NCBI RefSeq assembly: GCF_003334785.1
Contig: NZ_QOWV01000022.1
Direction: 5' to 3' (one strand)
DNA: 54,561 nt
From: Escherichia coli
GTDB taxonomy: Bacteria; Pseudomonadota; Gammaproteobacteria; Enterobacterales; Enterobacteriaceae
In this document: positions 18,529 through 42,681 of the stretch, piece by piece
How the letters are laid out: every line of letters starts with the position of its first letter
Numbering within the stretch: position 1 is the first letter of the stretch
Made by a program: the position numbers and the translations under genes
The notes under the pieces: generated by a model
Told to the model about the DNA's origin: nothing
Databases searched by the model: none
The model's input: the letters and a program-made list of their open reading frames with translations, nothing else

Positions 18529-18604
<76 letters not shown>

Positions 18605-18657: not shown

Positions 18658-18731
18658 GGCGCGTTAACAAAGCGGTTATGTAGCGGATTGCAAATCCGTC
18701 TAGTCCGGTTCGACTCCGGAACGCGCCTCCA
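18658..18731 (+). tRNA. cysT: tRNA-Cys (GCA)
   Basis: GGCGCGTTAACAAAGCGGTTATGTAGCGGATTGCAAATCCGTCTAGTCCGGTTCGACTCCGGAACGCGCCTCCA. Confidence 0.9.
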
Positions 18732-18743
18732 CTTTCTTCCCGA

Positions 18744-18830
18744 GCCCGGATGGTGGAATCGGTAGACACAAGGGATTTAAAATCCCTCGGCGTTCGCGCT
18801 GTGTGGGTTCAAGTCCCACTCCGGGTACCA
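18744..18830 (+). tRNA. leuZ: tRNA-Leu (UAA), long variable arm
   Basis: GCCCGGATGGTGGAATCGGTAGACACAAGGGATTTAAAATCCC...GGGTTCAAGTCCCACTCCGGGTACCA; the T-stem differs from the K-12 sequence as I recall it by two compensatory changes. Confidence 0.85.
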
Positions 18831-18871
18831 TGGGAAACATCAGAATAATCAAAGCAATAAGCAGTGTCGTG

Positions 18872-18896
18872 AAACCACCTCCGGGTGGTTTTTTTG
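18872..18896 (+). terminator. Rho-independent terminator of the tRNA operon
   Basis: AAACCACC-tccg-GGTGGTTT followed by TTTTT. Confidence 0.7.
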
Positions 18897-19072
18897 TGCC
18901 TGAAATTCATGTCCTGTGCATATCCTGTGCGCACGGGGTGCGATGAGCTGCAATCTTCAGCCTGGCAATGCCGAATCGAACGTGTCGCTTCCAGCATAGA
19001 GAACCAGGCCGCTTTGCCTGTTTTCCGGTACGCTTCCGGGAAGGGGGGGCCCGCTGAGCAAGCTGTAATGCT

Positions 19073-19813
19073 CTAGCCACCCTGAGTACAAAGTTGCTTA
19101 ATTCGTGCAATCACCTCATCTCTGTACTTCTGGTGTCCGCGCATAGCCCGTGGATGGGCAATTCTGAAACAGATTGCATTACCTGTTTTGAACTCCCATA
19201 GCTTCCCCGGAATGACTGAAGAAGTCTCATAACCGCCTAGCTCAGTAAGCACCTGTTTTATGATGTAGTCTGTTCTCCGGGCTCCAGATGCAAAGATGAT
19301 GAAATCAGGCTCAAGGTGTTTAATTTGTACCGCCAGTAGCTTCAGCGAGGCTAATATAACTTCCTGCACTTCATTTTGAGGGCGATTGAGAGGGGTCAGT
19401 CCGTCGTAATCCCACGCCAGTAGATTGGCATACACGATAGCCTGGGGAGGAATATTAAGCTCCCGGGCCAGTCTGAAATGATATTGCGTGAAGCGGCTAC
19501 GTGATTTGAGGTTGGCGGTGCCATAATTTTGTACCGGAAGATGTTTCCTGTAACGATCTACAGCTTCTTCAACCACTTGCCCGATGGTGACGTCAGGTAT
19601 AAGTCCCAACACCCGTGATATCGTATTCTTACCATTCAGCGTATTCCAGCCTGCGGTTTCACGTCCAACCAGCATGATTTTTACCGGTGAATGCCAGTAT
19701 TCTTCAAAGGGTACGGGTAAAAATACGCCTGAGTATTTATCCTCATTCAGGTTAAATGACTGGGCGTTAACTTCCTGCAATATCCGTTTGTACGCGTCTA
19801 ATAGCTTTTCCAT
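19073..19813 (-). CDS. Uracil-DNA-glycosylase-like superfamily protein (pipolin-type UDG candidate)
   Basis: 246 aa; KIMLVGRETAGW resembles the UDG family-4 motif A (GE.PG) and IAHPRAM a C-terminal HP motif; lies between tRNA-Leu and the integrase. Fold assignment is my inference. Confidence 0.45.
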   Translation of the reverse strand: MEKLLDAYKRILQEVNAQSFNLNEDKYSGVFLPVPFEEYWHSPVKIMLVGRETAGWNTLNGKNTISRVLGLIPDVTIGQVVEEAVDRYRKHLPVQNYGTANLKSRSRFTQYHFRLARELNIPPQAIVYANLLAWDYDGLTPLNRPQNEVQEVILASLKLLAVQIKHLEPDFIIFASGARRTDYIIKQVLTELGGYETSSVIPGKLWEFKTGNAICFRIAHPRAMRGHQKYRDEVIARIKQLCTQGG

Positions 19814-26056: not shown

Positions 26057-28657
26057 TCAGACTGGAAGACAGAATGTCGGATATTTACGGGCTATGATAT
26101 CCATCAGTGACTTCATTCGCGGTGTTACAGAACTAAATTTCATTTGGGGTATTTTTGCTCTTACCGCATTTTTTACATCAGTCACCGTTACTGAATAGCC
26201 TTCTGACGTCAGCCATTCAGCAACCTCTTTACAGGAATAACTTTTTTTATCTTTCAGCATAAGCCCCCATTGGCACTGAGTCAGCGCCCGGAGAAATAGT
26301 CTGACTAAAATATCATCACTACGTTTGCTTCCGACTTTTAGTTTCATATCAGAAAATACCGTCCGGCAATAGAGAAAATCACACCAGTCATCCCAGTCAG
26401 CCAGGGTCTTCAGTGTATGCGTTTGCCGCCAGTCGTCGAAAAGAGAGCGTTGCTGCAGAGCCTCTTCCATATTATCCCATGGGCGGGAAGACATCAGTAA
26501 ATGCCCTTCATTCATGGCGGGCTGTACGGGCTGGCGTTTGAAATCGAATTCCAGATTAAGACGGATATCCTGTTCCCGGGATACCAGATCGCTTTCCGAC
26601 AGCCACATCTCACGCGTTGATATCAACGTACTTCGGGATAACGTCTGACCGGGTAAACGATTAAGGTAAAGATCTACCATATAGTCGTTATAGTCACTGC
26701 GTGGAATATCGGCAGGAGGTTTGACGCCAGCCCTGGCATGAACAACAGGTTTTCCCTGAATAGCTCTATAGGTTAACTGCCCCCGGGTTTTCATGGCGAT
26801 AAGCTGGCTGACCTCATGCTTACATGTCAACATTGATGAACCCGGATCAACAATATCGCACAGCGACTGGAAGCGGGAAGACAGTGGACCGCTCATGTTT
26901 ATCTTGTTAAGTGGGCAATTTGTCAAAAAGCCATCGGTTGTGACGCTGACAACCGATGAATCAGAAGGCAAAGCATTCATGAGTTCCCCGGCAACGGCGC
27001 GGATAAATCCCGTCACATGCGCAGCAAAGAATGGCTGAGTAACCGATGATGGTGGGAGGGATCTGTTTAATCCACGGGCAGTATCAAAGGCGGTTTTGGC
27101 GCGAAGGCCCTGAGCAAGTTTGCCATAAAGCGAGTTGCCAATTTCTTTCCAGAATTTCTCCTCCAGAGAACCTTTAATATGGCGATTACGGTTCTCACGG
27201 ACCTGTTGAACAAAGGGAAGAAACACCGATGTTGATTCGCTGTTATGTGGGGAGGTGTCACAGATCCAGGGGACGATGATCCCATTATGGATCGTCATCT
27301 CTGCCCCGAGCGACAGAGCAAGTTCGATTTCAGGTGCCGTTGCCCATGATTCGCCACTTAATGGAAAGAATAACCCATATTGATCGGTCCGAACCGGCAG
27401 GCTGGGATAGGGAACTGATTCCGGGAACCGAAATGTGACAAGCGCAAATCCCATCACATGCCCACAGTAATCGTCCGGATTTTTACTGAGGCGGATGTTT
27501 CCGTAATCGGGTATGAGGATATCTAATAGCCCGGTGGTATACGCTCCAGCCAGATCGTAGTCATACCAGTGATCAGACGGTGTAACCCCCATCATAAAAC
27601 ACTCATTGCGTCCGCCGTGGTAACAGTTGATCGGGAACGTTTCAAACAGCTCTCTTGAAGGAACACTGGCGGGGTTTTTAATCGTCCGGAATGCCTGTTT
27701 CTCCGTGAGCCAGAGTTCACGGGTTTTAATGTGTGTCCCAAGGCAGACTTCGGGAGACATATTGTTTTCTTTAAGTGTTTTGGTGAACCGTGAAACTGCC
27801 ATCGCCCCGATGGTGGCGGGGACACGATCAATCATCAGCTCCCGGGCGCAAAAATTGCGAACCTGTAAAGCATAACGAACCGCAATCTCGGCATCCCGCA
27901 GAGCATAGGCTTCAAACCCTGCTCTGTCCCCCAGAAGATATTCACGCATATTGGTTATGGAATAAGGTGCAGGAATGGTGAGTTTGGGAAGACCCAGTAA
28001 TTCACCACATTCAGCCAGACCCATACCCCCGGGAGTGATAAGCAGTGTATCGATGAAAGCTACGTTACTGCAACGCGGAGGGGAAGTTCGTTTGTCAAAC
28101 ATTATCTGTTCAGTCTTTACGCGACGTTCCTGCTGTTCATCAAAATCGATACCGTAACGATTTTTGAAGCTGCTGACAGTACCGCGTATTCCTTTCAGAA
28201 GAATTTTGTAGTCTGACCAGAAATTGGCAAAGGAGGCGATATCCGCACGAATGAAATGCGCATATATATTAATAATACCGGGCCATTTTGTAATCACACC
28301 CGTTTCAAGAAGCGGTGTAATCGTTTGACAGAGAAAGTCCTTAAAAGACAGCCGGGATTTTTTCTGTGAGTCAGGTGGATAGATAATGTTCGATATACCT
28401 GTATTATCGGGTAAGACAACATAACTCTGATATGACAGAATATCATTCTGTCGTGTTTCAGGGTTGAAAACATATTCGGTATCAAAACCGATATGGAGCG
28501 TCAGGTCGTTTGAAATCACAGACACGTTTTTTGATGCAGGTGGCATCACAGGATAATCATCAAGCGTTTTAGGTCTTTTACGATTGAGCGCTGGCTCTGA
28601 AGTCACGGACTGATACCCCGAGGCGGCAGCGAGGATATCCTGCAAATTATGGCTCAT
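26057..28657 (-). CDS. Family B DNA polymerase, primer-independent type (piPolB-like), with 3'-5' exonuclease domain
   Basis: Start at MSHNLQD (GGAG upstream). Exo I-like FDTEYV, candidate motif A region YDYDLAGAYTTG, motif B KEIGNSLYGK (Kx3NSxYG) and motif-C-like VTTDGF. Assignment from motif recognition, not a search. Confidence 0.7.
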   Translation of the reverse strand: MSHNLQDILAAASGYQSVTSEPALNRKRPKTLDDYPVMPPASKNVSVISNDLTLHIGFDTEYVFNPETRQNDILSYQSYVVLPDNTGISNIIYPPDSQKKSRLSFKDFLCQTITPLLETGVITKWPGIINIYAHFIRADIASFANFWSDYKILLKGIRGTVSSFKNRYGIDFDEQQERRVKTEQIMFDKRTSPPRCSNVAFIDTLLITPGGMGLAECGELLGLPKLTIPAPYSITNMREYLLGDRAGFEAYALRDAEIAVRYALQVRNFCARELMIDRVPATIGAMAVSRFTKTLKENNMSPEVCLGTHIKTRELWLTEKQAFRTIKNPASVPSRELFETFPINCYHGGRNECFMMGVTPSDHWYDYDLAGAYTTGLLDILIPDYGNIRLSKNPDDYCGHVMGFALVTFRFPESVPYPSLPVRTDQYGLFFPLSGESWATAPEIELALSLGAEMTIHNGIIVPWICDTSPHNSESTSVFLPFVQQVRENRNRHIKGSLEEKFWKEIGNSLYGKLAQGLRAKTAFDTARGLNRSLPPSSVTQPFFAAHVTGFIRAVAGELMNALPSDSSVVSVTTDGFLTNCPLNKINMSGPLSSRFQSLCDIVDPGSSMLTCKHEVSQLIAMKTRGQLTYRAIQGKPVVHARAGVKPPADIPRSDYNDYMVDLYLNRLPGQTLSRSTLISTREMWLSESDLVSREQDIRLNLEFDFKRQPVQPAMNEGHLLMSSRPWDNMEEALQQRSLFDDWRQTHTLKTLADWDDWCDFLYCRTVFSDMKLKVGSKRSDDILVRLFLRALTQCQWGLMLKDKKSYSCKEVAEWLTSEGYSVTVTDVKNAVRAKIPQMKFSSVTPRMKSLMDIIARKYPTFCLPV

Positions 28658-28703
28658 AGTTAACTCCGAAAAAATGCCGGGAGCTGTGTCCCGGCATAAA
28701 GAA

Positions 28704-29342
28704 TCAAGATTTAATAACATTTACTACAGATTTGAAAATATCGGTTTTGCGTGATTCATCATCTGCATGGATAAATGAAACGAGGTTCCTGCCTGCTTTA
28801 ATCAGGATGCCACGTTGCGTCTTTTCCACAGATGGGGTGACGCGTGCAGATAACAGACAATTTTCATGTAACTGAAGAAACTTTTTTGAGGCGTAGCCGC
28901 CATGCAGTCGGGCTTTAATTTCATTATACATATCATCAAGAGAACCGGGTTCTCCTGATTCACTCAATACCGGATAGCCCTTCTTATCAAAAAGGCTGAG
29001 GATAGATTTACCATCATGTTCGAACAAGGTAACACCGTAAATGTATTTCATTCGAAAGGTGAGGGCGTCGGTGGTGTAGATCTCCTCCTGACAACTGAAA
29101 TTTTTGAGACGCCTGGCTAATTCATTAAAAACAGCACGAGCAGTAGCCGTGTCCTGCAGGGTGTAGGTATAAAGTACGAAGCCATCTGTGCCGATGAGCT
29201 TTACTAAGTTGTCCATAATCGTGATAGCGAGAACTAATGCAAAGGACAGATATTTTTCATCGTTGTCTACAGCTGTGCTTGCTGATTCGGGAATAATGTT
29301 CAGTGCATTATTAGCGTTATTTTCCGTGTTCTTAGTAACCAT
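28704..29342 (-). CDS. Hypothetical protein (212 aa) in an operon with the excisionase-like gene and the polymerase
   Basis: ORF between the Xis-like gene and the polymerase, same strand, short gaps. Confidence 0.5.
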   Translation of the reverse strand: MVTKNTENNANNALNIIPESASTAVDNDEKYLSFALVLAITIMDNLVKLIGTDGFVLYTYTLQDTATARAVFNELARRLKNFSCQEEIYTTDALTFRMKYIYGVTLFEHDGKSILSLFDKKGYPVLSESGEPGSLDDMYNEIKARLHGGYASKKFLQLHENCLLSARVTPSVEKTQRGILIKAGRNLVSFIHADDESRKTDIFKSVVNVIKS

Positions 29343-29532
29343 TTATATCACCTTTAAGTTTGTTTTGACGATGTGCATTTTCCCACTCAACAATATCGTC
29401 AAGAGAGAATCGTATAGCCCGCCCAATTCTGATGAAGGGCGGGAGTTTTCCGGGGTTGCGCGATATATCTGACGCAACCGTGGATGCAGAAAGATTAAAT
29501 CTTTCTGCGAACTGCTTAATGGTTAAATACAT
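29332..29532 (-). CDS. Excisionase / AlpA-like HTH DNA-binding protein
   Basis: 66 aa; LTIKQFAERFNLSASTV..IRIGRAIRFSLDDIVEWE is typical of the Xis/AlpA/MerR-like HTH family. Confidence 0.6.
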   Translation of the reverse strand: MYLTIKQFAERFNLSASTVASDISRNPGKLPPFIRIGRAIRFSLDDIVEWENAHRQNKLKGDINGY

Positions 29533-29674
29533 AAACCTCCGGTTTCAGAGAATAAGAAGCCACGCGGATTTAATATCAATCCACATTCTGTGATGACTTA
29601 ATGCAGGGCCCTGCAGAAGCATGCAATGACAATACCGTCCTTAAACGAGTGTTGCATCAATCACGAATCACAGA

Positions 29675-30811
29675 TCATAGGTTCATTTTTGTGTCATAAC
29701 TTTCTATGACCTGAGAAACCACTGCGTGTGATGTCGCTGCATTGTGAAAAGCGTAGCGACGGGTCGCCGTGAGTGAATGGTGATTTAGCAGATGGGAAGC
29801 GATTGCAATATCCCCGGTCGCCTGTAGTATCCGGGTGGCAAAGGTACGGCGCAGGTCATGCATCCGCAGGTTATCAATGTTGGCATCCCGACAAATACGG
29901 GCAAAGGTTGCACGCGGATATGCCAGAGGGCGGGCATTGTCGGTTAGTTGTGGAAAAATGTAAGTTTTGCTGAGCATCAGGTCCTGCTGGCACTGGACAA
30001 CTGCAATGGCTGGAGGTGCAAGTGGGCAGGTGAAAGGGTGTCCGGACTTTGTATCAGGCAGTATGAGTTGATGCATATCCGGGTGCCAGTACTCCCATTT
30101 CAGGGTACATACCTCACCAATACGCATCCCCGTATAAAGAGCAAGCAATATAGAATCAGCTGCCGGTGTTTGCAGCGCTGTTGCCGCGTCAATAAAGCGC
30201 GGGATTTCTGTCGCTGACAGCGTGCGATAGCGAATGTTATTTTCTTTCAGATAGCGGACATGTGACATCGGGGAATGTGTGATCCATCCAGCACGTACTG
30301 CCAGAGAGCATATTTTGGACAATATTGCGAGGATTCGGTTTACTGTTGACGGACGTAATTTTTCCCGTAAGCCAGCAGCATATTGTTCCAGTTCTCCTGC
30401 CGTGATGTCGCGAAGTTGCCGCTTGCCCCAGAACGGGCGAACGTAGAGGTTGAGTTTTGACAACTCTGACTGAGGACTCTTTTTATACAACTGCAAATCC
30501 GGTAGCCACAGGTCATTGATGGCCTGTTCCACAGTGAATCGACGGGACTGAACCGCAAGACGATTTTTATCAGCAAGCAGTTTCATCACATGCTGACGGG
30601 CATCCTCAACGCAGAGCTGAGGGAACTGACCCAGGGTTTCATATATACGCTGATTGTTTATAGTGGCACGAAAGGCCAGCGTGATCCGATTGGGATACAC
30701 CAGAGCACGCAGGTTTTGGCAGTGAATATCACGGTATTCCTGACAACCCGTGAGGGGATGTGGAAGTTGGTGAATTGATTTGTTGCTGAAACGCAGATCC
30801 AGAATAGGCAT
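29675..30811 (-). CDS. Tyrosine recombinase (XerC/phage-integrase family), second recombinase of the element
   Basis: 378 aa; catalytic-domain motifs RIGEVCTLKW, HDLRRTFATR, and a Tyr in TRRYAFH. Confidence 0.8.
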   Translation of the reverse strand: MPILDLRFSNKSIHQLPHPLTGCQEYRDIHCQNLRALVYPNRITLAFRATINNQRIYETLGQFPQLCVEDARQHVMKLLADKNRLAVQSRRFTVEQAINDLWLPDLQLYKKSPQSELSKLNLYVRPFWGKRQLRDITAGELEQYAAGLREKLRPSTVNRILAILSKICSLAVRAGWITHSPMSHVRYLKENNIRYRTLSATEIPRFIDAATALQTPAADSILLALYTGMRIGEVCTLKWEYWHPDMHQLILPDTKSGHPFTCPLAPPAIAVVQCQQDLMLSKTYIFPQLTDNARPLAYPRATFARICRDANIDNLRMHDLRRTFATRILQATGDIAIASHLLNHHSLTATRRYAFHNAATSHAVVSQVIESYDTKMNL

Positions 30812-30954
30812 CGTATTTCTCCTGTAAATGACACTGGAAAAATACGATGTGAGGTTATAGTCTGCCAGTTACAGCTTTCACAGTTCATCAGGTGAAAAAA
30901 CGCAGACTCGGATATAATGGCAACACAATTCCATGTCGCCATTATATTAAGAAA

Positions 30955-32085
30955 CTACAGTTTCATGATCTTGTTCGCTATTTTTTCGAAGTAAACCTCA
31001 TTCTTAAGAAGAGTGATATTGTTTGTTTGAACACCCAGACCACTGGAGGTTGACTGGAAGTTGAGTGAACCACTTATCACTGTGGACTTTCCTGATAAAA
31101 AGGAAATCAACTCCTTGGAAGATGGTGCCCACTCAGGGTTTAAGAGTAATGCAATATAGATATATGTCTTACGAAGCAATTGTTCGATATCTTTTTTATG
31201 CCCTGTAGTGTTTTGCTTACCTTTAATGCAAATAGATTTGATTATGAACTCATCAGGGCTGGTTAAAGGCGTTTTAAACTCACTCAGTGATTCATCGTTA
31301 CGAATGACTTCATAAGGCAGCATAGATAAAATGATCAATGCAATCATTTTAGGATGATAAAGGTAGTTATCACGAATGATTTTTCCTGCCTTCATTGTAT
31401 TGAGCGTTGTTTGAATAAATACAAAGTGATATTCAGAGCAAAAGTAACAAAACACAAGCCAGGATAGGTCAATGGCTGGAATGTTAATATCCTTAGGTAG
31501 TTTGTTTAGCCAGTATTCAGACTTCAAAAAGGTCCTGATTTCAACAGTATATTCATGCATTTTTGCGCTGAAATCAAGCATTGCTACTTGACCTGATTGT
31601 TCCGTAACTGTGTGGTCTATAAATGTTAGTGTATTGCACATTTTATCCAGCGTGTTTTGAAAACAAGAAAGGAGTTCGGCATTATTATTACCATTAACCG
31701 CAGATGAAAGTTCAGTTTTAATAAATGCATCCAGTAGCATACAGATTTCTTTCGGAATTACATTTTTACGGGATTGCTGTGAATAGAAATGTACTGCCAG
31801 TAAATTAAAGGCAGTGCACTCCTTTTTTAACCATTGTTCGAGCACTGGGACGTGCTGAAAAAAATTGATATGCTTAGCAGTAGATGCTGATGGAGATAGT
31901 ACATGAAGAATATCTACAGCAGGCTTCATTTGCAATATTTGATCGGATTCGGTAGTCGTCATTAGTTCCAGTAATTGCTGTTCAGAAAATAGTTTAGACA
32001 GGTGATCAATGTCTTTTTGGTATTGATTAAGTTTTGTTAAATTCCCCGGTATACGGGTTACATTGTTTTTCATTTTCTCGAACAT
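30955..32085 (-). CDS. Hypothetical protein (376 aa), AT-rich ORFan
   Basis: Long uninterrupted ORF in roughly 30-35% GC DNA; no motif recognised. Confidence 0.5.
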   Translation of the reverse strand: MFEKMKNNVTRIPGNLTKLNQYQKDIDHLSKLFSEQQLLELMTTTESDQILQMKPAVDILHVLSPSASTAKHINFFQHVPVLEQWLKKECTAFNLLAVHFYSQQSRKNVIPKEICMLLDAFIKTELSSAVNGNNNAELLSCFQNTLDKMCNTLTFIDHTVTEQSGQVAMLDFSAKMHEYTVEIRTFLKSEYWLNKLPKDINIPAIDLSWLVFCYFCSEYHFVFIQTTLNTMKAGKIIRDNYLYHPKMIALIILSMLPYEVIRNDESLSEFKTPLTSPDEFIIKSICIKGKQNTTGHKKDIEQLLRKTYIYIALLLNPEWAPSSKELISFLSGKSTVISGSLNFQSTSSGLGVQTNNITLLKNEVYFEKIANKIMKL

Positions 32086-32846
32086 AATTTTATCCTCGTT
32101 TAAATTATTACACTGATTTAAAAAGTAGCATGTCGTGTTAGCGAGGTAATCCTAAAACGTGAATGGCAGCAGGGGCAAGCTTGAATCTGCGTAAGGATAT
32201 GGCTTAAATTTAATGGTGTAATCAGTGAGTTAGAGGCTTATAGCCATTTAAATACAATAAGTTATGATGATATGTGGCGGGTGTAAATCGGTTAGTTTTT
32301 ATGTTTAAAATATGAGCGTTGTGAGATTTGAGATATGATGGTTTTTAAATTACATACAAGTTACCCCTGATGATCAGTATTAATACCAGAATGATACATG
32401 CGAGCAGCACCCAATCCTGTACTATTGATGATGACTATACAAGGCTGAAACTTTTAGTCGTATGTTGCCAGGAGGATTAATGTCCACAAGGCCCAGATAG
32501 AATGATTTCTCAGATATTAAAGTTGAAACTTATTAACTATGTGAGAGGCTGATATTTATTCAGTCTCTCATTTGTTTTTATCGTTTTAAAGTTAAAAGGA
32601 AATAAATAATGCCTTCCGCCGATGAATCAATGTGCTGATTTCCCTCAAATCAGCCTCAATACTACCAACATCACCAAAGACTTCACCTCTAATCTCACTT
32701 CGATTTTTCATGAAATTGGTGCTTAATAAGCTTTCTTTTTTTAATGCCATTAATTTTGGTTTTATATCGTTATAGAAATGCTTACGGCTTACCCTGATGC
32801 TATGAATCGAGTAGTAAACTGTTTTATACATCAAAAATATAAGTAA

Positions 32847-34130: not shown

Positions 34131-35654
34131 ATGAACGACAAAATCAGTCAGGACACGATCAACAAAGCCCTGTGGGCCGCGTGTGATACGTTCCGTGGCA
34201 CCATCAGTGCTGATACCTATAAAGACTTTATCCTTACCATGCTGTTCCTCAAGTACATTTCAGATGTCTGGCAGGATCACTATGACGAATACAAAGAACA
34301 GTATGGCGATGCGCCGGAACTGATTGAAGCGATGATGGCCAACGAGCGTTTTGTACTGCCAAAAAGTGCCAGCTTTTATGCGCTGTACGAACGCCGCCAT
34401 GAGCCGGGTAACGGTGAGCGTATCGATCAGGCTCTGCATGCAATCGAAGAAGCCAACGGAACCAAACTGAAAGATGCCGGGAAAAGCGTGTTCCAGGATA
34501 TTTCGTTTAACACTGACCGCTTGGGTGAAGAAAAACAGAAGAACACCATCCTGCGTCAGTTGCTGGAAGACTTCGCCGGTGAAGATCTCAACCTGAAGCC
34601 AAGCCGTGTAGGTACGCTGGACGTTATCGGTAATGCCTACGAATATCTGATCAAAAACTTTGCCGCCAGCGGTGGGCAGAAAGCCGGGGAGTTCTATACC
34701 CCGCCGGAAGTTTCGGACCTGATTGCAGAACTGCTCGATCCGCAACCGGGTGATACCATCTGCGATCCAGCCTGTGGTTCCGGTTCATTATTGATGAAGT
34801 GTGGGCGTAAAATTGTCTCCGGGCATGATAGTCGTAACTATGCATTGTTCGGTCAGGAAGCGATCGGTTCTACGTGGTCGCTGGCGAAAATGAATATGTT
34901 CCTGCACGGGGAAGACAACCATAAAATCGAGTGGGGCGATACCATTCGTAACCCGAAGCTGCTCGATAAAAATGGCGACCTGATGCTGTTTGATATCGTG
35001 ACCGCTAACCCACCGTTCAGCCTCGATAAGTGGGGCCATGACGAGGCCGAGAACGATAAGTTTGGCCGTTTTCGTCGCGGTGTACCGCCGAAGACTAAAG
35101 GAGATTACGCTTTTATCTCGCATATGATCGAAACCCTGAAACCGGGAACTGGCCGTATGGGCGTAGTTGTGCCACACGGTGTGCTTTTCCGTGGCTCCAG
35201 CGAAGGTAAAATTCGCCAGAAACTGATCGACGAAAATTTGCTGGATGCGGTAATTGGTCTGCCGGAAAAACTGTTCTACGGTACGGGGATTCCGGCTGCG
35301 ATTCTGATTTTCAAAAAGCAGAAAGTTGATGACAAGGTGCTGTTTATCGATGCCAGCCGTGAATTCAAGGCAGGTAAAAACCAGAACCAGCTCAGCGCAG
35401 AAAACATCGAGAAAATCGTCAAGACCTACCGTGATGGCGATAACGTCGAGAAATACGCCTATCTTGCCAGCCTGAAAGAGATTCAGGACAACGATTACAA
35501 CCTTAATATTCCACGTTATGTTGATACTTTCGAGGAAGAAGACGAGATTGATTTACTGGTCGTGCGTGCTGAACGTGAGCAACTGAAGGTGGAACTGGCG
35601 AATCTGGAAACGGAGATGGCGGGTTATCTGAAGGAGTTGGGTTATGGTGCCTAA
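34131..35654 (+). CDS. hsdM: Type I restriction-modification system methyltransferase subunit
   Basis: 507 aa; AdoMet-binding DPACGSGSLL and catalytic NPPF (TANPPFS) of N6-adenine methyltransferases; followed by hsdS. Confidence 0.9.
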   Translation: MNDKISQDTINKALWAACDTFRGTISADTYKDFILTMLFLKYISDVWQDHYDEYKEQYGDAPELIEAMMANERFVLPKSASFYALYERRHEPGNGERIDQALHAIEEANGTKLKDAGKSVFQDISFNTDRLGEEKQKNTILRQLLEDFAGEDLNLKPSRVGTLDVIGNAYEYLIKNFAASGGQKAGEFYTPPEVSDLIAELLDPQPGDTICDPACGSGSLLMKCGRKIVSGHDSRNYALFGQEAIGSTWSLAKMNMFLHGEDNHKIEWGDTIRNPKLLDKNGDLMLFDIVTANPPFSLDKWGHDEAENDKFGRFRRGVPPKTKGDYAFISHMIETLKPGTGRMGVVVPHGVLFRGSSEGKIRQKLIDENLLDAVIGLPEKLFYGTGIPAAILIFKKQKVDDKVLFIDASREFKAGKNQNQLSAENIEKIVKTYRDGDNVEKYAYLASLKEIQDNDYNLNIPRYVDTFEEEDEIDLLVVRAEREQLKVELANLETEMAGYLKELGYGA

Positions 35655-36837
35655 GGGGTGGAGTGAAAGTTATCTTGGTGAAGTGGTTACATATAAAAAA
35701 GGCTATGCATTTAATTCATCATTATATGCAGAGGAAGGGATACGGATTGTTCGAATTTCGGACACAACTAGGGACTCCATCCATTCTGACAACCCTGTTT
35801 TTATTGCTGGCGGGAATGTCGAAGGTTTAGAGCAATACAGTCTTTTCGAAAACGATATAATACTCTCTACTGTGGGATCTCGACCACATTTACTGGACTC
35901 CATGGTTGGTAAAGCTGTAAAGGTTCCGCGCAGTGCACATAATAGCTTGCTTAATCAGAATCTTGTTAAACTCATACCGAAGAAAACAAAAATAACAAAT
36001 GAGTATCTTTTTAGCATGCTTAAAACAAAGGAATTTATACAATTCATCTCAAACTTGGTTCGTGGTAATGCAAACCAAGTCTCTATAACTTTGGCTGATC
36101 TTTTTAAATATAAATTCATCTTACCTTCCCTCCCCGAACAAAAGAAAATCGCCCAAATCCTGTCAACCTGGGATAAGGCGATTTCGGTGACGGAAAAGCT
36201 TCTCACCAACAGTCAGCAGCAGAAAAAAGCCCTGATGCAGCAATTACTTACCGGGAAGAAACGGTTGCTGGATGAGAATGGGGTGAGGTTTATCAAAAAA
36301 TGGGAAAAAACCACTTTAGGGGATATCGCAAAAATCACAACAGGTAGCTCTAATAGACAGGATTCAAGCTTGGATGGAAAGTATACTTTCTTTGACCGTT
36401 CTGAGGATATTAGAACTAGCAGTATTTATCTATTTGATGGAGAGGCAATTATAGTTCCTGGAGAAGGGCAGAGATTTGAACCAAAGTATTTCATTGGTAA
36501 ATTCGATCTTCACCAAAGAACCTACGCCATAATGGATTTTGCAAGCCATTCTGGGAGGTTTCTTTTCTACATGATTGATTATCTTAAAGTTTATTTTCTT
36601 AACCAAGCTGTGGGGTCAACTGTAAAGTCTTTACGACTTCCAATGTTTCAAAAAATGACCTTTGAAGCACCGGAAATTGAAGAACAACAAAAAATCGCCG
36701 CCGTCCTCTCCGCTGCCGATGCAGAAATCTCCACACTGGAGAAAAAACTCGCCTGCCTGAAGGGTGAGAAAAAAGCCCTGATGCAACAGCTGCTGACCGG
36801 TAAGCGTCGGGTGGTTGTTGATGTGGATGCCGCGTAA
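35644..36837 (+). CDS. hsdS: Type I restriction-modification system specificity subunit
   Basis: 397 aa; two target-recognition halves separated and followed by the conserved repeats KKALMQQLLTGKKRL and KKALMQQLLTGKRRV; start overlaps the hsdM end. Confidence 0.85.
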   Translation: MVPKGWSESYLGEVVTYKKGYAFNSSLYAEEGIRIVRISDTTRDSIHSDNPVFIAGGNVEGLEQYSLFENDIILSTVGSRPHLLDSMVGKAVKVPRSAHNSLLNQNLVKLIPKKTKITNEYLFSMLKTKEFIQFISNLVRGNANQVSITLADLFKYKFILPSLPEQKKIAQILSTWDKAISVTEKLLTNSQQQKKALMQQLLTGKKRLLDENGVRFIKKWEKTTLGDIAKITTGSSNRQDSSLDGKYTFFDRSEDIRTSSIYLFDGEAIIVPGEGQRFEPKYFIGKFDLHQRTYAIMDFASHSGRFLFYMIDYLKVYFLNQAVGSTVKSLRLPMFQKMTFEAPEIEEQQKIAAVLSAADAEISTLEKKLACLKGEKKALMQQLLTGKRRVVVDVDAA

Positions 36838-37520
36838 TGAAACTGACCAAAAACGCCCCGCTGACTGAGCGTGAAATCGACTGGCTGGAAGAGGTGCTGA
36901 TGAAGTATGGCAATGATGACTCGGTGCTCTGCTTCTCTGAACTGGATGGCTTTCTGACGGCGATTGTCTCCGGCCCGAATATGATTTCCCCGAATATCTG
37001 GCTCAGTGCCCTTTGGGGGCGGGGTGATTACCACCCTCGCTGGACCACTGAAAAAGAGATGACGCGTTTTGTGGGGCTGTGTTTTCAGCATATGAACGAT
37101 ATCGCTGGCTGCCTGTATGAGGCCCCTGAACAGTTTGAACCGATTTTCAATGGACGTGAGGTGAAGGGGAAGACATATACCATCGTCGAAGAGTGGTGTT
37201 TCGGGTATATGAAAGGCCGGTCTCTGGATGACTGGTCAGCCTTGCCAGAGGCCTTACGTCCCTCGCTGGAGGCGATAGCCCTTCATGGTATCGAAAAGAA
37301 CTTCCCAGTGGTTGAGAAAATGTCACCTGTTCAATTTGAACAGAGTATTACTCTCATTCAGCCTGCGGCACTGGCGCTTTACCAGCACTGGTTGTCGGTG
37401 AGAATGTCAGAGGCATCATCCCGGCCTGTTCCCGTGAAGGGGGCAGAAAAACTGCCCGGTCGTAATGACCCGTGTCAGTGTGGCAGTGGTAAAAAATTTA
37501 AAAAGTGCTGCCTGCACTGA
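36837..37520 (+). CDS. YecA-like protein (UPF0149 domain with C-terminal SEC-C metal-binding motif) embedded in the hsd operon
   Basis: 227 aa; C-terminal GRNDPCQCGSGKKFKKCC is a SEC-C motif; overall resemblance to E. coli YecA as recalled; start shares the hsdS stop (ATGA overlap). Confidence 0.65.
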   Translation: MKLTKNAPLTEREIDWLEEVLMKYGNDDSVLCFSELDGFLTAIVSGPNMISPNIWLSALWGRGDYHPRWTTEKEMTRFVGLCFQHMNDIAGCLYEAPEQFEPIFNGREVKGKTYTIVEEWCFGYMKGRSLDDWSALPEALRPSLEAIALHGIEKNFPVVEKMSPVQFEQSITLIQPAALALYQHWLSVRMSEASSRPVPVKGAEKLPGRNDPCQCGSGKKFKKCCLH

Positions 37521-37542
37521 CAAAGCGGAAGGGGGCTTGCTC

Positions 37543-39327
37543 ATGGCAGTGAACAATCTGGATCGTTCCCGGTGGTACATGGGAAATGTTCTCTGGTTCG
37601 GAGGCTACAACAGCAAAACGGATCGGGAGAATAACTTTGGCTTTCTCTTATCAGAGAATGGTAATGAGCTGTTTTTTCATAAGAATGAGATAAGCCGGAA
37701 CTATACACCCGCTGACAATACACCGGTGCTGTTCAGGGAAGGTACAGGTAAAAATGGTAAGCCTACGGCTTTTAATGTTCACATTCTTGATAAAACAGAT
37801 GAGGAGACGGCTGAGCTCCTTATTGAATATCTCCGGGCTATTATTGAGGAGGGCGTTGATTTCGCTCGTTGGCGTTATCGTGACTGCGTTATTAATTTTC
37901 TCACTCAGTCCTTTGGCGAAAGGGCTATAATTCGGTTAGTTACCAGTGATATAGCTGCTACAAAAGTCTTGCCGCTATTTTTAAAATCACGTAACTACGA
38001 TAACCAGTTTGCACTTTTCGCCTCTGATAAGAATTTTGATGATTTGACCGCACAACAAATATCTCCTGCGGTCATGCCTTCGTCATTTATCGATAATAAC
38101 ATTGATCAGTTCGCTGTTTGGGTGAAAAGGTGTTCTGCGGCTACGGATTGCCAGGGGGCTTCAACATCGGACATCATCAATGAATTACTCAGCCATATAT
38201 CTATAAGTGCTATTCTCTACCTGGCATTTTACGATTGTATAAGCAGCGAGCGGATTCTTGAACATCGGCATGATGATATAGAGAATTTTGTTCGACGTAG
38301 TTTCACGAAAAATAAAATGGATATACAACCATTTGTCCGTGATGCCTATCAGCAGAAATTCTCATCGAGAGAGCAATTTTATAAACATTCCGTGATTAGT
38401 CCTTTTGTCAATAAGTATTTGATTAAACAGAAGATGTTCAGGAAAGATTTCAGTTTTGTTAATGATATTGAGTCGAATACTGAAATTTCTTCTGACCCTG
38501 AATACTTTATTCTGAGTAAATTGTTACCGCTGATTGGGCGTAACGATGAACAGTCCGTTCTGAGTATTATTCTGCATGAGATATGGCAGGGAGTGTTGTC
38601 GGGTAAAATCCCGGTAAGCCATCCTTCTGTTTTCAAATTGTTCCCACAGTGTAGCTCATTGAAAATTCGTTCCCGGAATTTAAAATTATCCTGTGAGGCA
38701 TTTCACTGGAATGCAAAACAACCTGACGGAACGATAGAGAAAAAATTCCTTTGTCGTTCGAAAATCTGCCATGATCCGCAGGTACTGCCCGACCTCAGTC
38801 GGGATTACATCGACTTCACTATTTATGACTGGCTTGCCCACTATGGCATGACCTATCTGATTGCAGGCGAACCTTCTAAGCGGGATTTCCCAATTAAACT
38901 GGCTGGGTATTTCAATCGTATCAGAGAATTACATTCCCGCTTGCATTGCCGAAGTTGTGGGGTGCTGATGGTTCCAGATATGAAATATGCTCGTGTGGAA
39001 GTCAGCGTCTGGGATACAAAGTCGAAAGGATTTGTGAAAAAACCTTTCCAGGCCGCGTATCGCCTGACCGTCTTTAAATGTGCCAGTCATTCGTGCGAAC
39101 AGTTTGGTATCGGGCATTACATTAATCACTGTATTGGTTACAAATGCAGCGAAATAATTGACGCCAGGGATTTGCATGAAAAATGTTCAGAAGGACGATT
39201 TATTTGTGCATCCTGTGGTTCCTGCTGTACGACGCATCAGGAGAAATTTGGTAATGTAAACAAGGGCGAAACAGAACAGGTCAAGTACAATCGCCTTTAT
39301 CGGGACTCGCCGTTCTTTTCATCATAA
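37543..39327 (+). CDS. Cold-shock-domain (OB-fold) protein with large uncharacterised middle region and Cys-rich C-terminus, embedded in the hsd operon
   Basis: Start at MAVNNLD (AAGGGGG upstream). N-terminus GNVLWFGG..NFGFL..ELFFHKNEI..KPTAFNV parallels CspA (GIVKWFN..GFGFI..DVFVHFSAI); C-terminus has several CxxC/CxxxxC clusters. Confidence 0.6.
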   Translation: MAVNNLDRSRWYMGNVLWFGGYNSKTDRENNFGFLLSENGNELFFHKNEISRNYTPADNTPVLFREGTGKNGKPTAFNVHILDKTDEETAELLIEYLRAIIEEGVDFARWRYRDCVINFLTQSFGERAIIRLVTSDIAATKVLPLFLKSRNYDNQFALFASDKNFDDLTAQQISPAVMPSSFIDNNIDQFAVWVKRCSAATDCQGASTSDIINELLSHISISAILYLAFYDCISSERILEHRHDDIENFVRRSFTKNKMDIQPFVRDAYQQKFSSREQFYKHSVISPFVNKYLIKQKMFRKDFSFVNDIESNTEISSDPEYFILSKLLPLIGRNDEQSVLSIILHEIWQGVLSGKIPVSHPSVFKLFPQCSSLKIRSRNLKLSCEAFHWNAKQPDGTIEKKFLCRSKICHDPQVLPDLSRDYIDFTIYDWLAHYGMTYLIAGEPSKRDFPIKLAGYFNRIRELHSRLHCRSCGVLMVPDMKYARVEVSVWDTKSKGFVKKPFQAAYRLTVFKCASHSCEQFGIGHYINHCIGYKCSEIIDARDLHEKCSEGRFICASCGSCCTTHQEKFGNVNKGETEQVKYNRLYRDSPFFSS

Positions 39328-39396
39328 GTCTTCGTTCATTTTGAGTATGTCCGTAAGGACATACAGTTTCACCTCTTAGCCAAGAAGGATTACCGG

Positions 39397-42300
39397 GTGG
39401 ATAAGCACTACCAACCTAAATTCCAGGAAGAATACAGCGCCAAAATTCCGGCACTGACGTTACTGACCAGCCTCGGCTGGACGTTTTTATCTCCGAAACA
39501 GATTATGGATTACCGGGGCTATAAACAGGATGAGGTGGTGCTGCGTCCGGTTCTGCGTGAAGAGCTGTCGAAGCGTTCCTTTATGGCGGGTGGCAAAACC
39601 TGCCAGTTATCGGAAAAAGCACTGGATAACCTGATATCACAGGTCTGTTCTCCGGCGCTGAATGAAGGGCTGCTCAAAGCCAATGAACGGATGTATAACC
39701 ATCTGCTCTACGGTATCGCCGTCACGGAGTTTGTCGATGGCAAGAAGGTCAACCCCACCATTGCGCTGATCGACTGGGAACATCCGGAAAATAACCAGTT
39801 CCATTTTACTGAAGAATTTACGGTATTGCGGTCAGGTGGTGTTGAAACCCGGAGGCCAGATATTGTCTGCTTTGTTAATGGTATCCCGCTGGCTGTTATT
39901 GAAGCGAAAAGCCCGGCAGGCCACGGCAAGAAAGGACCAACCATTGACGAAGGGATATCCCAGAGTATCCGCAACCAGCTCAACGATGAAATCCCGCAGC
40001 TGTTTGCTTACAGCCAGATATTACTATCGATTAACGGGCATGACGGGCGCTACGGTACCTGTCATACACCAATGAAATTCTGGGCGGCATGGCGCGAAGA
40101 AGATATTACCGATGCGCAGATGTATGCTCTGCGCAACCATCCTTTATCGACTGAACAAATTCATGCGTTGTTTGATCATCGTCCATCAGCCGATCTCAAC
40201 TGGTACCAACAGTTAATCGCCGCCGGTGAACTGGCTGTCAGTGGACAGGACAAACTGCTCATCAGCCTGCTTTCGCCGGAACGTCTGCTGGAGATGACCC
40301 GCTTCTTCACTCTGTTTGATAAAAAGACCGGGAAAATTGTCGCCCGCTATCAGCAGGTGTTCGGGATAAAAAGACTGCTGGAACGCATCAGTACCCGCAG
40401 ACCAGACGGGGGCAGGGAAGGTGGGGTGATCTGGCATACCACGGGGTCAGGTAAATCTTACACCATGGTGTTCCTCAGCAAGGCGCTGATTCTTCATGAC
40501 AGCCTGAAGCGGTGTCGTATTGTGGTGGTGACGGACCGTATCGATCTTGAAGAACAGCTCAGCAATACCTTTGCATCCGGCGGCGAGTTGGCCGGGAAAA
40601 AAGACAAAGCCAATGCAATGGCAACATCCGGGCAGATGCTGGCGAAACAGATTGGCTCCGGTAAAGAACGCATCATTTTCACCCTAATCCAGAAATTTAA
40701 TTCAGCGACAAAACTTCCTGAATGCGTCAATACCAGCCCCGATATCATCGTTCTGATTGATGAAGGACACCGTAGCCAGGGTGGTGAGAACCATGTGCGA
40801 ATGAAACTGGCACTGCCGAACGCCGCCTTTGTGGCATTTACTGGTACGCCATTGCTAAAAGAAGATAAGACCACCAATAAATTCGGACCGATTGTCCACG
40901 CTTATACCATGCAGCGAGCGGTAGAAGATAAAGCCGTTACACCTTTGCTGTATGAAGAACGTATTCCCGACCTTGAGGTTAACGATCGGGCAATAGATGC
41001 CTGGTTTGATCGTATTACCGATGGGTTAAGCGAAGCGCAAAAAGCCGACCTTAAGCGTAAATATGCCCGTAAAGGTGAGGTCTACAGTGCAGATGACCGC
41101 ATCCGGCTGATCGCACTCGATATCGCCACACACTTCTCGAAGAATATTGATGAGGGGCTGAAAGGCCAGCTTGCCTGCGACAGCAAGATTTCCGCCATCA
41201 AATATAAAAAGTATCTTGATGAAGCCGGGTTGTTTGAGTCAGCAGTAGTTATCAGCCCGCCGGATACCCGGGAAGGGAATACTGAGGTGGATGAAAGCAA
41301 ACTGCCGGAAGTGACGAAATGGTGGAAGGATAATGTCGGCACGCAGGATGAGTCTGTGTATACCCGCAATATCATCAGTCGTTTCGATACCGATGAGAAG
41401 CTCAAATTGCTGATAGTCGTTGATAAACTGCTCACCGGGTTTGATGAGCCGAAGAATACCGTGCTGTATATCGACAAGCCGCTTAAGTCCCACAACCTTA
41501 TCCAGGCGATTGCGCGGGTGAACCGACTGCATCCACTGAAAAAGTTCGGTCTGCTGATTGATTATCGCGGTATTCTGGCTGAGCTGGACACGACTATCGG
41601 CAAATATCAGGACCTCGCCTCCCGAACTCAGGGCGGATACGATATCAAAGATATTGACGGGCTGTACAGCGCCATGAGCTCTGAATACAAGCGTCTACCG
41701 CATCTGTATAACCAGCTGTGGGCCATATTTGCTGGTGTCAAAAACAAAAATGATACTGAGCAGTTACGTGCGGTACTGGTGCCTAAAATGGAAGAACGTG
41801 ACGGAGAGATGGTCGATATCCATCAGAAAACCCGTGATGATTTCTTCGAGGCGTTAACGGCCTTTGCCGGATGCCTGAAAGTGGCACTGCAGTCCGCTAC
41901 CTTCTTCACCGACAAGAGCTTTACGGAACAAGACCGAAATCTCTATAAAGAAACCGTAAAACAGATGTCCAGCCTGCGCCAGTGGGCGATGCAGGTAAGT
42001 GGAGAGCAGGTCAATTATGACGACTACGCCGAGCAGGTGAAAAAACTGCTGGATAAGCATGTCACCGGCGTTGAGGTTCGTGAACCGGATGGCGTGTATG
42101 AAGTCGGTAAAATGGGCAAGAGCGAAAAGCCCGAAGAGTGGGACAACAATAAAACCCGCAATGAAACCGACATCATTAAAACCCGTGTGACAAAGATGAT
42201 TGAGCAGGAGCTGCGTGATGACCCGTATGCTCAGGAAGCCTTTTCAAAACTCCTGCGTATGGCTATTGAAGAGGCTGAAAAACTGTTCGACCATCCGTTG

Positions 42301-42681
42301 AAACAGTATCTCTTGTTCCGTGAATTTGAAGAACAGGTTGAAGCCCGTAAGCTCAGCGATATCCCGGATGCACTGGCGGTAAACAAGCATGCTCAGGCGT
42401 ATTACGGTGTATTTAAAAAAGAGCTACCTGAGGTTTTTGCGGTAAACGACGTTCAGGTGCAGGATAAGTGGACGAAGCTGGCTTTTGAAGTGGACAACAT
42501 TATCGTCAAAGCGGTGGCAGAAAACTCTCTGAACCCCCAGGACATTGAGAAAGTCGTTAAGACAAGTCTGCTACCACTGCTGTTTACGGCCTGCCGGGAA
42601 ATTGGTGCCGGAATGAATCAGGTTAACCGTATTGTGGAAACCATCATCCAGATACTGCGCGTTGGTTTGATGAAATCATGA
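39397..42681 (+). CDS. hsdR: Type I restriction enzyme endonuclease/helicase subunit
   Basis: 1094 aa, GTG start with AAGAAGGA ribosome-binding site; helicase motif I (HTTGSGKS) and motif II (LIDEGHRSQ). Confidence 0.9.
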   Translation: MDKHYQPKFQEEYSAKIPALTLLTSLGWTFLSPKQIMDYRGYKQDEVVLRPVLREELSKRSFMAGGKTCQLSEKALDNLISQVCSPALNEGLLKANERMYNHLLYGIAVTEFVDGKKVNPTIALIDWEHPENNQFHFTEEFTVLRSGGVETRRPDIVCFVNGIPLAVIEAKSPAGHGKKGPTIDEGISQSIRNQLNDEIPQLFAYSQILLSINGHDGRYGTCHTPMKFWAAWREEDITDAQMYALRNHPLSTEQIHALFDHRPSADLNWYQQLIAAGELAVSGQDKLLISLLSPERLLEMTRFFTLFDKKTGKIVARYQQVFGIKRLLERISTRRPDGGREGGVIWHTTGSGKSYTMVFLSKALILHDSLKRCRIVVVTDRIDLEEQLSNTFASGGELAGKKDKANAMATSGQMLAKQIGSGKERIIFTLIQKFNSATKLPECVNTSPDIIVLIDEGHRSQGGENHVRMKLALPNAAFVAFTGTPLLKEDKTTNKFGPIVHAYTMQRAVEDKAVTPLLYEERIPDLEVNDRAIDAWFDRITDGLSEAQKADLKRKYARKGEVYSADDRIRLIALDIATHFSKNIDEGLKGQLACDSKISAIKYKKYLDEAGLFESAVVISPPDTREGNTEVDESKLPEVTKWWKDNVGTQDESVYTRNIISRFDTDEKLKLLIVVDKLLTGFDEPKNTVLYIDKPLKSHNLIQAIARVNRLHPLKKFGLLIDYRGILAELDTTIGKYQDLASRTQGGYDIKDIDGLYSAMSSEYKRLPHLYNQLWAIFAGVKNKNDTEQLRAVLVPKMEERDGEMVDIHQKTRDDFFEALTAFAGCLKVALQSATFFTDKSFTEQDRNLYKETVKQMSSLRQWAMQVSGEQVNYDDYAEQVKKLLDKHVTGVEVREPDGVYEVGKMGKSEKPEEWDNNKTRNETDIIKTRVTKMIEQELRDDPYAQEAFSKLLRMAIEEAEKLFDHPLKQYLLFREFEEQVEARKLSDIPDALAVNKHAQAYYGVFKKELPEVFAVNDVQVQDKWTKLAFEVDNIIVKAVAENSLNPQDIEKVVKTSLLPLLFTACREIGAGMNQVNRIVETIIQILRVGLMKS

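Follow-up and report, generated by a model that had tools for sequence, protein, structure and literature searches.

Phages and genomic islands reportedly integrate into tRNA genes and regenerate the interrupted gene with a copy borne by the element, and the anticodon loop is said to be one of the sublocations at which such integration takes place. Where the identity of attL and attR begins at this loop, tyrosine recombinases that target tRNA genes are expected to exchange strands within it and to use the anticodon stem as the inverted core sites. Other examples in Escherichia coli are the islands with P4-like integrases at leuX, selC, pheV and asnT, which include pathogenicity islands and the HPI. 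These share with the island described here an integrase made of Arm-DNA-bind_3 and tyrosine catalytic domains, a tRNA target and variable cargo. Their repeats typically measure about 16-25 bp and extend from the T-loop as far as the tRNA 3' end, whereas the repeat of the leuZ island starts at the anticodon loop; P4-like pathogenicity islands carry virulence cargo, as opposed to the anti-phage defence genes of the leuZ island.

In its main features the leuZ locus is like the classical cases of tRNA-gene integration, with an intact tRNA gene at attL, an integrase gene beside attL, an empty site in other strains and a partial tRNA copy at attR, the latter being read here in the relatives CFSAN061762 and 203740. 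It also has in common with anticodon-loop integrations an identity block that takes in the tRNA from its anticodon loop to its 3' end. What sets it apart from the classical cases is the length of this block (~130 bp): another ~72 nt follow the tRNA and include the whole 3'ETS-leuZ spacer and the operon terminator. The mechanism is ordinary, textbook tRNA-gene integration at a gene already known as an island and prophage site. Particular to leuZ here are the long identity block, with spacer and terminator, and a T-stem allele of a foreign genus that acts as a marker. A 'leuZ-associated island' has been listed for APEC O78 (PMC4313913), and prophages at leuZ have been recorded in Shiga-toxin-producing E. 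coli O121:H19 (PMC8767318); the site is the same in both records, but it is only listed there, and our literature search on leuZ islands returned only listings of the site.

The stretch of E. coli DNA analysed here, called the window, is 54,561 nt long. Its upstream part is E. coli chromosome, with uvrY, uvrC and pgsA followed by the tRNA genes, and leuZ is the final gene of the pgsA-glyW-cysT-leuZ cluster (Table 1). In K-12, leuZ is followed by 3'ETS-leuZ and then by yecA, which lies directly 3' of leuZ at the unoccupied site of both K-12 and MB53, while the window has foreign DNA in this place. It is very probable that a defence island integrated at leuZ has rebuilt the 3' part of the gene with its own copy, which comes from a foreign genus. 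In this account, an island that exceeds 35 kb and brings anti-phage defence genes and a tyrosine integrase of its own would have inserted into leuZ through site-specific recombination between its attP and the chromosomal site. The attP would hold the leuZ sequence from the anticodon loop onwards, followed by the spacer and terminator. Strand exchange on the 5' side of the T-stem, with the 7-nt anticodon loop as the most likely place, would then leave at attL a chimeric but working gene, host-derived in its 5' part and island-derived in its 3' part, and the 3' part native to the host would move to attR beside yecA. The U50-A64 pair of the island copy is the normal leuZ allele of Citrobacter, Kluyvera, Pseudocitrobacter and other genera that host this island family.

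Table 1. Features of the leuZ locus and the adjoining island in the window.
Feature	Positions	Strand	Remarks
glyW	18529-18604	+	
cysT	18658-18731	+	
leuZ, tRNA-Leu(UAA)	18744-18830	+	ARAGORN; Rfam tRNA model, 57.6 bits; K-12 alignment
att identity block, attL copy	18775-18902	+	~128 nt; direct repeat in relatives with the same island
Interval holding the strand-exchange site (inferred from variant partition)	18775-18803	+	ATTTAAAATCCCTCGGCGTTCGCGCTGTG; 29 nt
T-stem 5' strand base	18804	+	linear position 61, standard position 50; T in the window, C in K-12
T-stem 3' strand base, partner of 18804	18818	+	linear position 75, standard position 64; A in the window, G in K-12
3'ETS-leuZ spacer and operon terminator, island copy	18831-18897	+	K-12 annotates 3'ETS-leuZ at the homologous place
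Island body within the window	18903-54561		comparison with relatives; right end and attR lie outside the window
246-aa protein, first island gene	19073-19813	-	PHROG 29550, function unknown; no NCBIfam match
Tyrosine site-specific integrase, 415 aa	19864-21111	+	Pfam; PHROG 1 integrase, 8e-54
Hhe, anti-phage protein	47752-53181		4070 bits against the PADLOC Hhe model

Alignment with leuZ of K-12 MG1655 gives exactly two mismatches, both in the T arm, which reads GTGGG-TTCAAGT-CCCAC in the window and GCGGG-TTCAAGT-CCCGC in K-12. The original prediction had described these two changes, C-to-T and G-to-A, as paired with each other, and had quoted the K-12 sequence; the alignment confirms the substitutions and the quoted sequence alike, and places both changes in the standard pair 50:64. 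Positions 18804 and 18818 face each other as the second pair of the 5-bp T-stem, where U-A replaces C-G (hereafter the T/A allele). The same cloverleaf is predicted for both alleles, with minimum free energies of -35.1 and -36.6 kcal/mol. By our own rough estimate, two random substitutions in an 87-nt tRNA would fall in the same pair and restore pairing in ~0.2% of cases. Since the exact allele recurs in 122 genomes, sequencing error is excluded as its source. On its sequence, leuZ in the window is a chimera, of which positions 1-31 belong to the host and position 32 to the CCA end is supplied by the island.

The departure from K-12 does not end with the tRNA. The trailer at 18831-18900, which the original prediction had overlooked, carries a G to C substitution at 18838, an A to C substitution at 18841, a 2-nt deletion (AA) in an A run near 18847 and, in the terminator loop, a T to C substitution at 18881. 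Past about 18902-18907, shortly after the terminator, there is no further similarity to K-12. The terminator consists of the stem ACCACC/GGTGGT followed by a T run and has the loop UCCG in the window, UUCG in K-12 and UACG in most Citrobacter copies.

The relation between this segment and the island can be read in two relatives. CFSAN061762 carries a 29-kb version of the island at leuZ, and its attL matches window positions 18744-18905 at 100% identity. It has a direct repeat of ~131-133 bp (locus L003, 515-645 and 29719-29851), which begins at ATTTAAAATCCC in the anticodon loop and ends with GTGCCTG, the far copy lying just upstream of yecA. The block spans the last base of the 5' strand of the anticodon stem, the loop TTTAAAA, the rest of the tRNA to its 3' end, the spacer, the terminator and the closing GTGCCTG. 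Upstream of the repeat, attR reads ...CGTAGA and the tRNA ...AAGGGA; identity of attL and attR begins at linear position 32, one base ahead of the 7-nt loop. The two copies vary at both T-stem bases, at two trailer substitutions, at the 2-nt indel and in the terminator loop, and at every one of these positions in CFSAN061762 attL has the base of the window and attR that of K-12. Strain 203740, whose Hhe region is 99.7% identical to the window, has the exact T/A leuZ and an attR just upstream of yecA that is of K-12 type at all variable positions.

In both relatives, the displaced native 3' fragment that the original prediction had proposed to look for downstream of the island is therefore present as the K-12-type attR. 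The expectation that attR would fall past the window also held: when a second copy of the T arm or terminator was sought in the 54,561-nt window with up to 3 mismatches allowed, the attL copy was the only one present, and in 203740 the alignment with the window ends ~0.65 kb before the start of attR. The window lacks attR because it ends inside the island, and its own attR presumably resembles those of the relatives. As to extent, the island was correctly named as the supplier, although the supplied part had been put too small as the 3' end of the gene; it runs from the anticodon loop at 18775 past the terminator to 18902.

All differences between attL and attR lie 3' of 18803 and are completely partitioned, which places the crossover 5' of the T-stem base 18804. 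There is no polymorphism inside 18775-18803, so the crossover is bounded to these 29 nt, and within them strand exchange most likely took place in the 7-nt anticodon loop at 18776-18782. A different route to the same gene would be homologous recombination, in which transduction or conjugation delivers a foreign leuZ segment and the integrase plays no part. The near-identical flanks shared between genera make such an exchange physically possible, and mosaic trailers do exist, for example in MB53 and TUM9754; yet the foreign-type stretch stops exactly at the start of the island DNA, and the displaced native copy begins exactly at the anticodon loop, at the other island end. This arrangement is the signature of site-specific integration, and an import by homologous recombination is extremely improbable.

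Among complete E. coli genomes, the exact allele of the window is found in 122 of 5425, and nearly all others are 97.7% identical to it, which is the value of the K-12 allele. That the T/A pair is an ordinary leuZ polymorphism of E. coli, unrelated to the island, was considered as well, as compensated polymorphisms do occur in tRNA stems and as only 122 of ~554 island genomes have T/A, with the result that the island does not predict the allele. The original prediction had named the same two substitutions in strains with no insertion at this locus as the observation that would speak against it. This was addressed with a chimeric query, in which the island-type 3' part of the tRNA and trailer were joined to the K-12 flank on the yecA side, and against which T/A beside the native flank would score at least 97.8% and rank top. 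None of the 5402 E. coli genomes with a full-length junction has T/A in the copy adjoining the native yecA flank; among the best 60 of the 5402, all have 96.9%, the K-12-type value, except MB53 with 98.2%, and none falls between. With no genome that combines T/A and the native flank, T/A was not found at any unoccupied leuZ site of E. coli. In addition, the displaced copy is C/G in the island carriers CFSAN061762 and 203740, and the pair travels together with four more differences in the trailer. An ordinary polymorphism is very improbable in the face of these observations, and it is the partition between attL and attR, together with the linkage in the population, that supports the original reading of a 3' part supplied by the island.

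Of the 122 T/A genomes, six were inspected singly in addition to the window, and the others were covered indirectly, through the chimeric query alone. All seven (the window, TUM1881, CFSAN061762, ECCRA-119, DX6, SCPM-O-B-8794 and 203740) have DNA of the island family beside leuZ; six of the seven were seen to have both the 246-aa gene and the integrase, 203740 having been checked for the cargo match and attR only. The converse does not apply, in that the left junction of the island is present in 554 of the 5425 complete genomes (~10%), and ~430 of the 554 carriers (about 78% of the copies) have a C-G T-stem with an island-type trailer, as sampled in TUM9754, EC21Z-063, 99COLEC and VE-F10. The T/A pair is therefore not a general mark of the island. 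Since most island copies have C-G with the island-type trailer, the att copy of the island is polymorphic in the T-stem, and this polymorphism may be due to different donor lineages or to short-patch conversion from attR. Strain H1 (NZ_CP010160.1; locus L008, 3001-3087), with an island of the same family, has another compensated pair, G52 to A and C62 to T, and its T-stem GCGAG...CTCGC is unique among the 5425 genomes.

MB53 (NZ_CP073939.1; locus L004, 2955-3240) was considered as an island-free T/A genotype and rejected, because its T-stem is the native C-G. It has no island and a K-12 flank, and its trailer is island-like, with C, C and the 2-nt deletion plus one additional G to A change. 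This trailer may be a scar of island loss through homologous recombination between the ~130-bp att repeats, or alternatively a plain polymorphism.

When one genome per bacterial species was scanned for exact matches, the T/A T arm was found in 29 DNA stretches, one from E. coli and 28 from other genera. The latter are Citrobacter (C. werkmanii, C. youngae, C. koseri, C. braakii, C. portucalensis, C. freundii and unnamed species) as well as Pseudocitrobacter, Kluyvera, Yokenella, Raoultella, Enterobacter and Buttiauxella. In three Pseudocitrobacter genomes a T/A leuZ is followed by yecA within ~160 bp, with no insertion, and C. koseri, C. braakii and K. intermedia have T/A in the full gene as well as in the displaced fragment. 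From the insertion-free Pseudocitrobacter genomes and from T/A at both copies in the latter three species, it follows that T/A is the native allele of those genera. The same island is present in C. koseri and Buttiauxella warmboldiae, where the integrase is 93-94% identical.

A compensatory pair could also have arisen anew in the island-borne or attL copy, without inheritance from another genus, and the different compensated pair of H1 indicates that such changes do arise in the island copy. Against this, the identical T arm is native to leuZ of many other genera, and the island is common to those genera at 93-98% protein identity, which makes inheritance the simpler explanation; a new origin is quite unlikely. 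The T-stem pair is best read as an inter-genus polymorphism, apparently imported in the attachment site of the island, that did not arise in this strain. When a native donor of the trailer was sought, the island-type trailer AAACATCAGAAT was seen solely beside islands; at the Buttiauxella noackiae locus, the sequence available to this search is cut after 10 nt.

The trailer has a role of its own, as 3'ETS-leuZ is reported to be a sponge for the small RNAs RyhB and RybB (Lalaouna et al. 2015, as cited in PMC6191717). The window has the same transcript segment 3' of leuZ as K-12, with the core and then the terminator kept. The predicted RyhB/RybB pairing core, AATCAAAGCAATAAGCAGTGTCGTG, which was assigned from our own reading of the sequence and from duplex prediction, does not differ between the window, K-12 and nearly all other genera listed, and the spacer differences from K-12 (two substitutions and the 2-nt deletion) all lie 5' of it. 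RNAduplex gives nearly equal predicted energies for the RyhB and RybB duplexes with the K-12 and window spacers; as the program over-extends these duplexes, the result is informative solely on the near-equal energies. The putative sponge of the window differs from the known 3'ETS-leuZ in that its segment is the copy of the island, altered 5' of the core and with a UCCG loop. In the window, the whole host 3'ETS-leuZ sponge and terminator is exchanged for the version of the island. It is unlikely that the T-stem variation is non-neutral, such that selection or conversion from attR to attL adapts the sole UUA-reading tRNA, or the buffering of RyhB and RybB, to a new host.

The first island gene, between attL and the integrase gene, encodes a 246-aa protein with 95-98% amino acid identity to its counterparts in Citrobacter koseri and Buttiauxella warmboldiae. 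The integrase has an Arm-DNA-bind_3 domain at residues 17-106 (7e-14) and a Phage_integrase domain at residues 223-387 (1e-23) in Pfam, and its homologues in relatives are annotated as site-specific integrases. This is a P4-like layout of an N-terminal Arm-DNA-bind_3/DUF4102 domain and a C-terminal catalytic domain, but against the NCBIfam P4-type model PRK09692 the protein reaches only 26.4 bits, where the cut-off is 434; it is accordingly a predicted integrase of P4-like architecture and not a close member of that group. We infer that this integrase probably catalysed the integration.

The cargo at 34131-53181 comprises a type I restriction-modification system, two DUF262 proteins and Hhe. 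At the restriction-modification positions, annotation in relatives includes an embedded YecA-family gene and an M48 peptidase, and a 620-aa ORF at 37465-39327 is without a PADLOC match. Between the integrase and this cargo lies a block at 26057-32085 with an 887-aa ORF, a 212-aa ORF that overlaps its start, and then ORFs of 378 and 376 aa. The counterparts in CFSAN061762 are annotated as a family-B DNA polymerase, a hypothetical protein, an HTH regulator and a further tyrosine recombinase, and the 887-, 378- and 376-aa ORFs have no PADLOC match; the block may be a nested mobile element. In the last ~90 nt of the window (54472-54561), alignment to the closest relative, 203740, is lost inside a fragment of an IS3-family transposase, which suggests a further insertion or rearrangement at the right end of the island.

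A free attP was sought in plasmid and viral collections, and none was present in those searched; as a result, the att copy belonging to the island is read from attL only. The plasmid matches are chromosome-like replicons or unrelated, with the exception of one Enterobacter soli plasmid, and two IMG/VR matches are attR junctions in other hosts as opposed to attP. The 32.6-kb Enterobacter soli plasmid (NC_015969.1) carries at 32394-32525 a partial, 86%-identical fragment that runs from leuZ position 33, in the anticodon loop, to the terminator, and this fragment looks like an attP for leuZ on an extrachromosomal element.

These results give a precise left boundary for a defence island that is present in ~10% of complete E. 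coli genomes. The island travels from one enterobacterial genus to another and deposits a foreign tRNA allele, which records that history, and the T-stem pair and trailer variants can be used for typing leuZ island lineages and for spotting past occupancy, as in the scar-like trailer of MB53. The general understanding of tRNA-gene integration is unchanged by the leuZ case.

Other elements have also been seen at this gene. In an ST131 isolate (locus L007, 3001-4234), a siphovirus-like prophage with another integrase is inserted at leuZ with an attL of K-12 type, and divergence begins directly after TTTTTTTGT. In one IMG/VR contig (L043, 563-900), an attR of the island is followed by sequence resembling the left end of the ST131 phage, which suggests tandem occupancy of the leuZ site.
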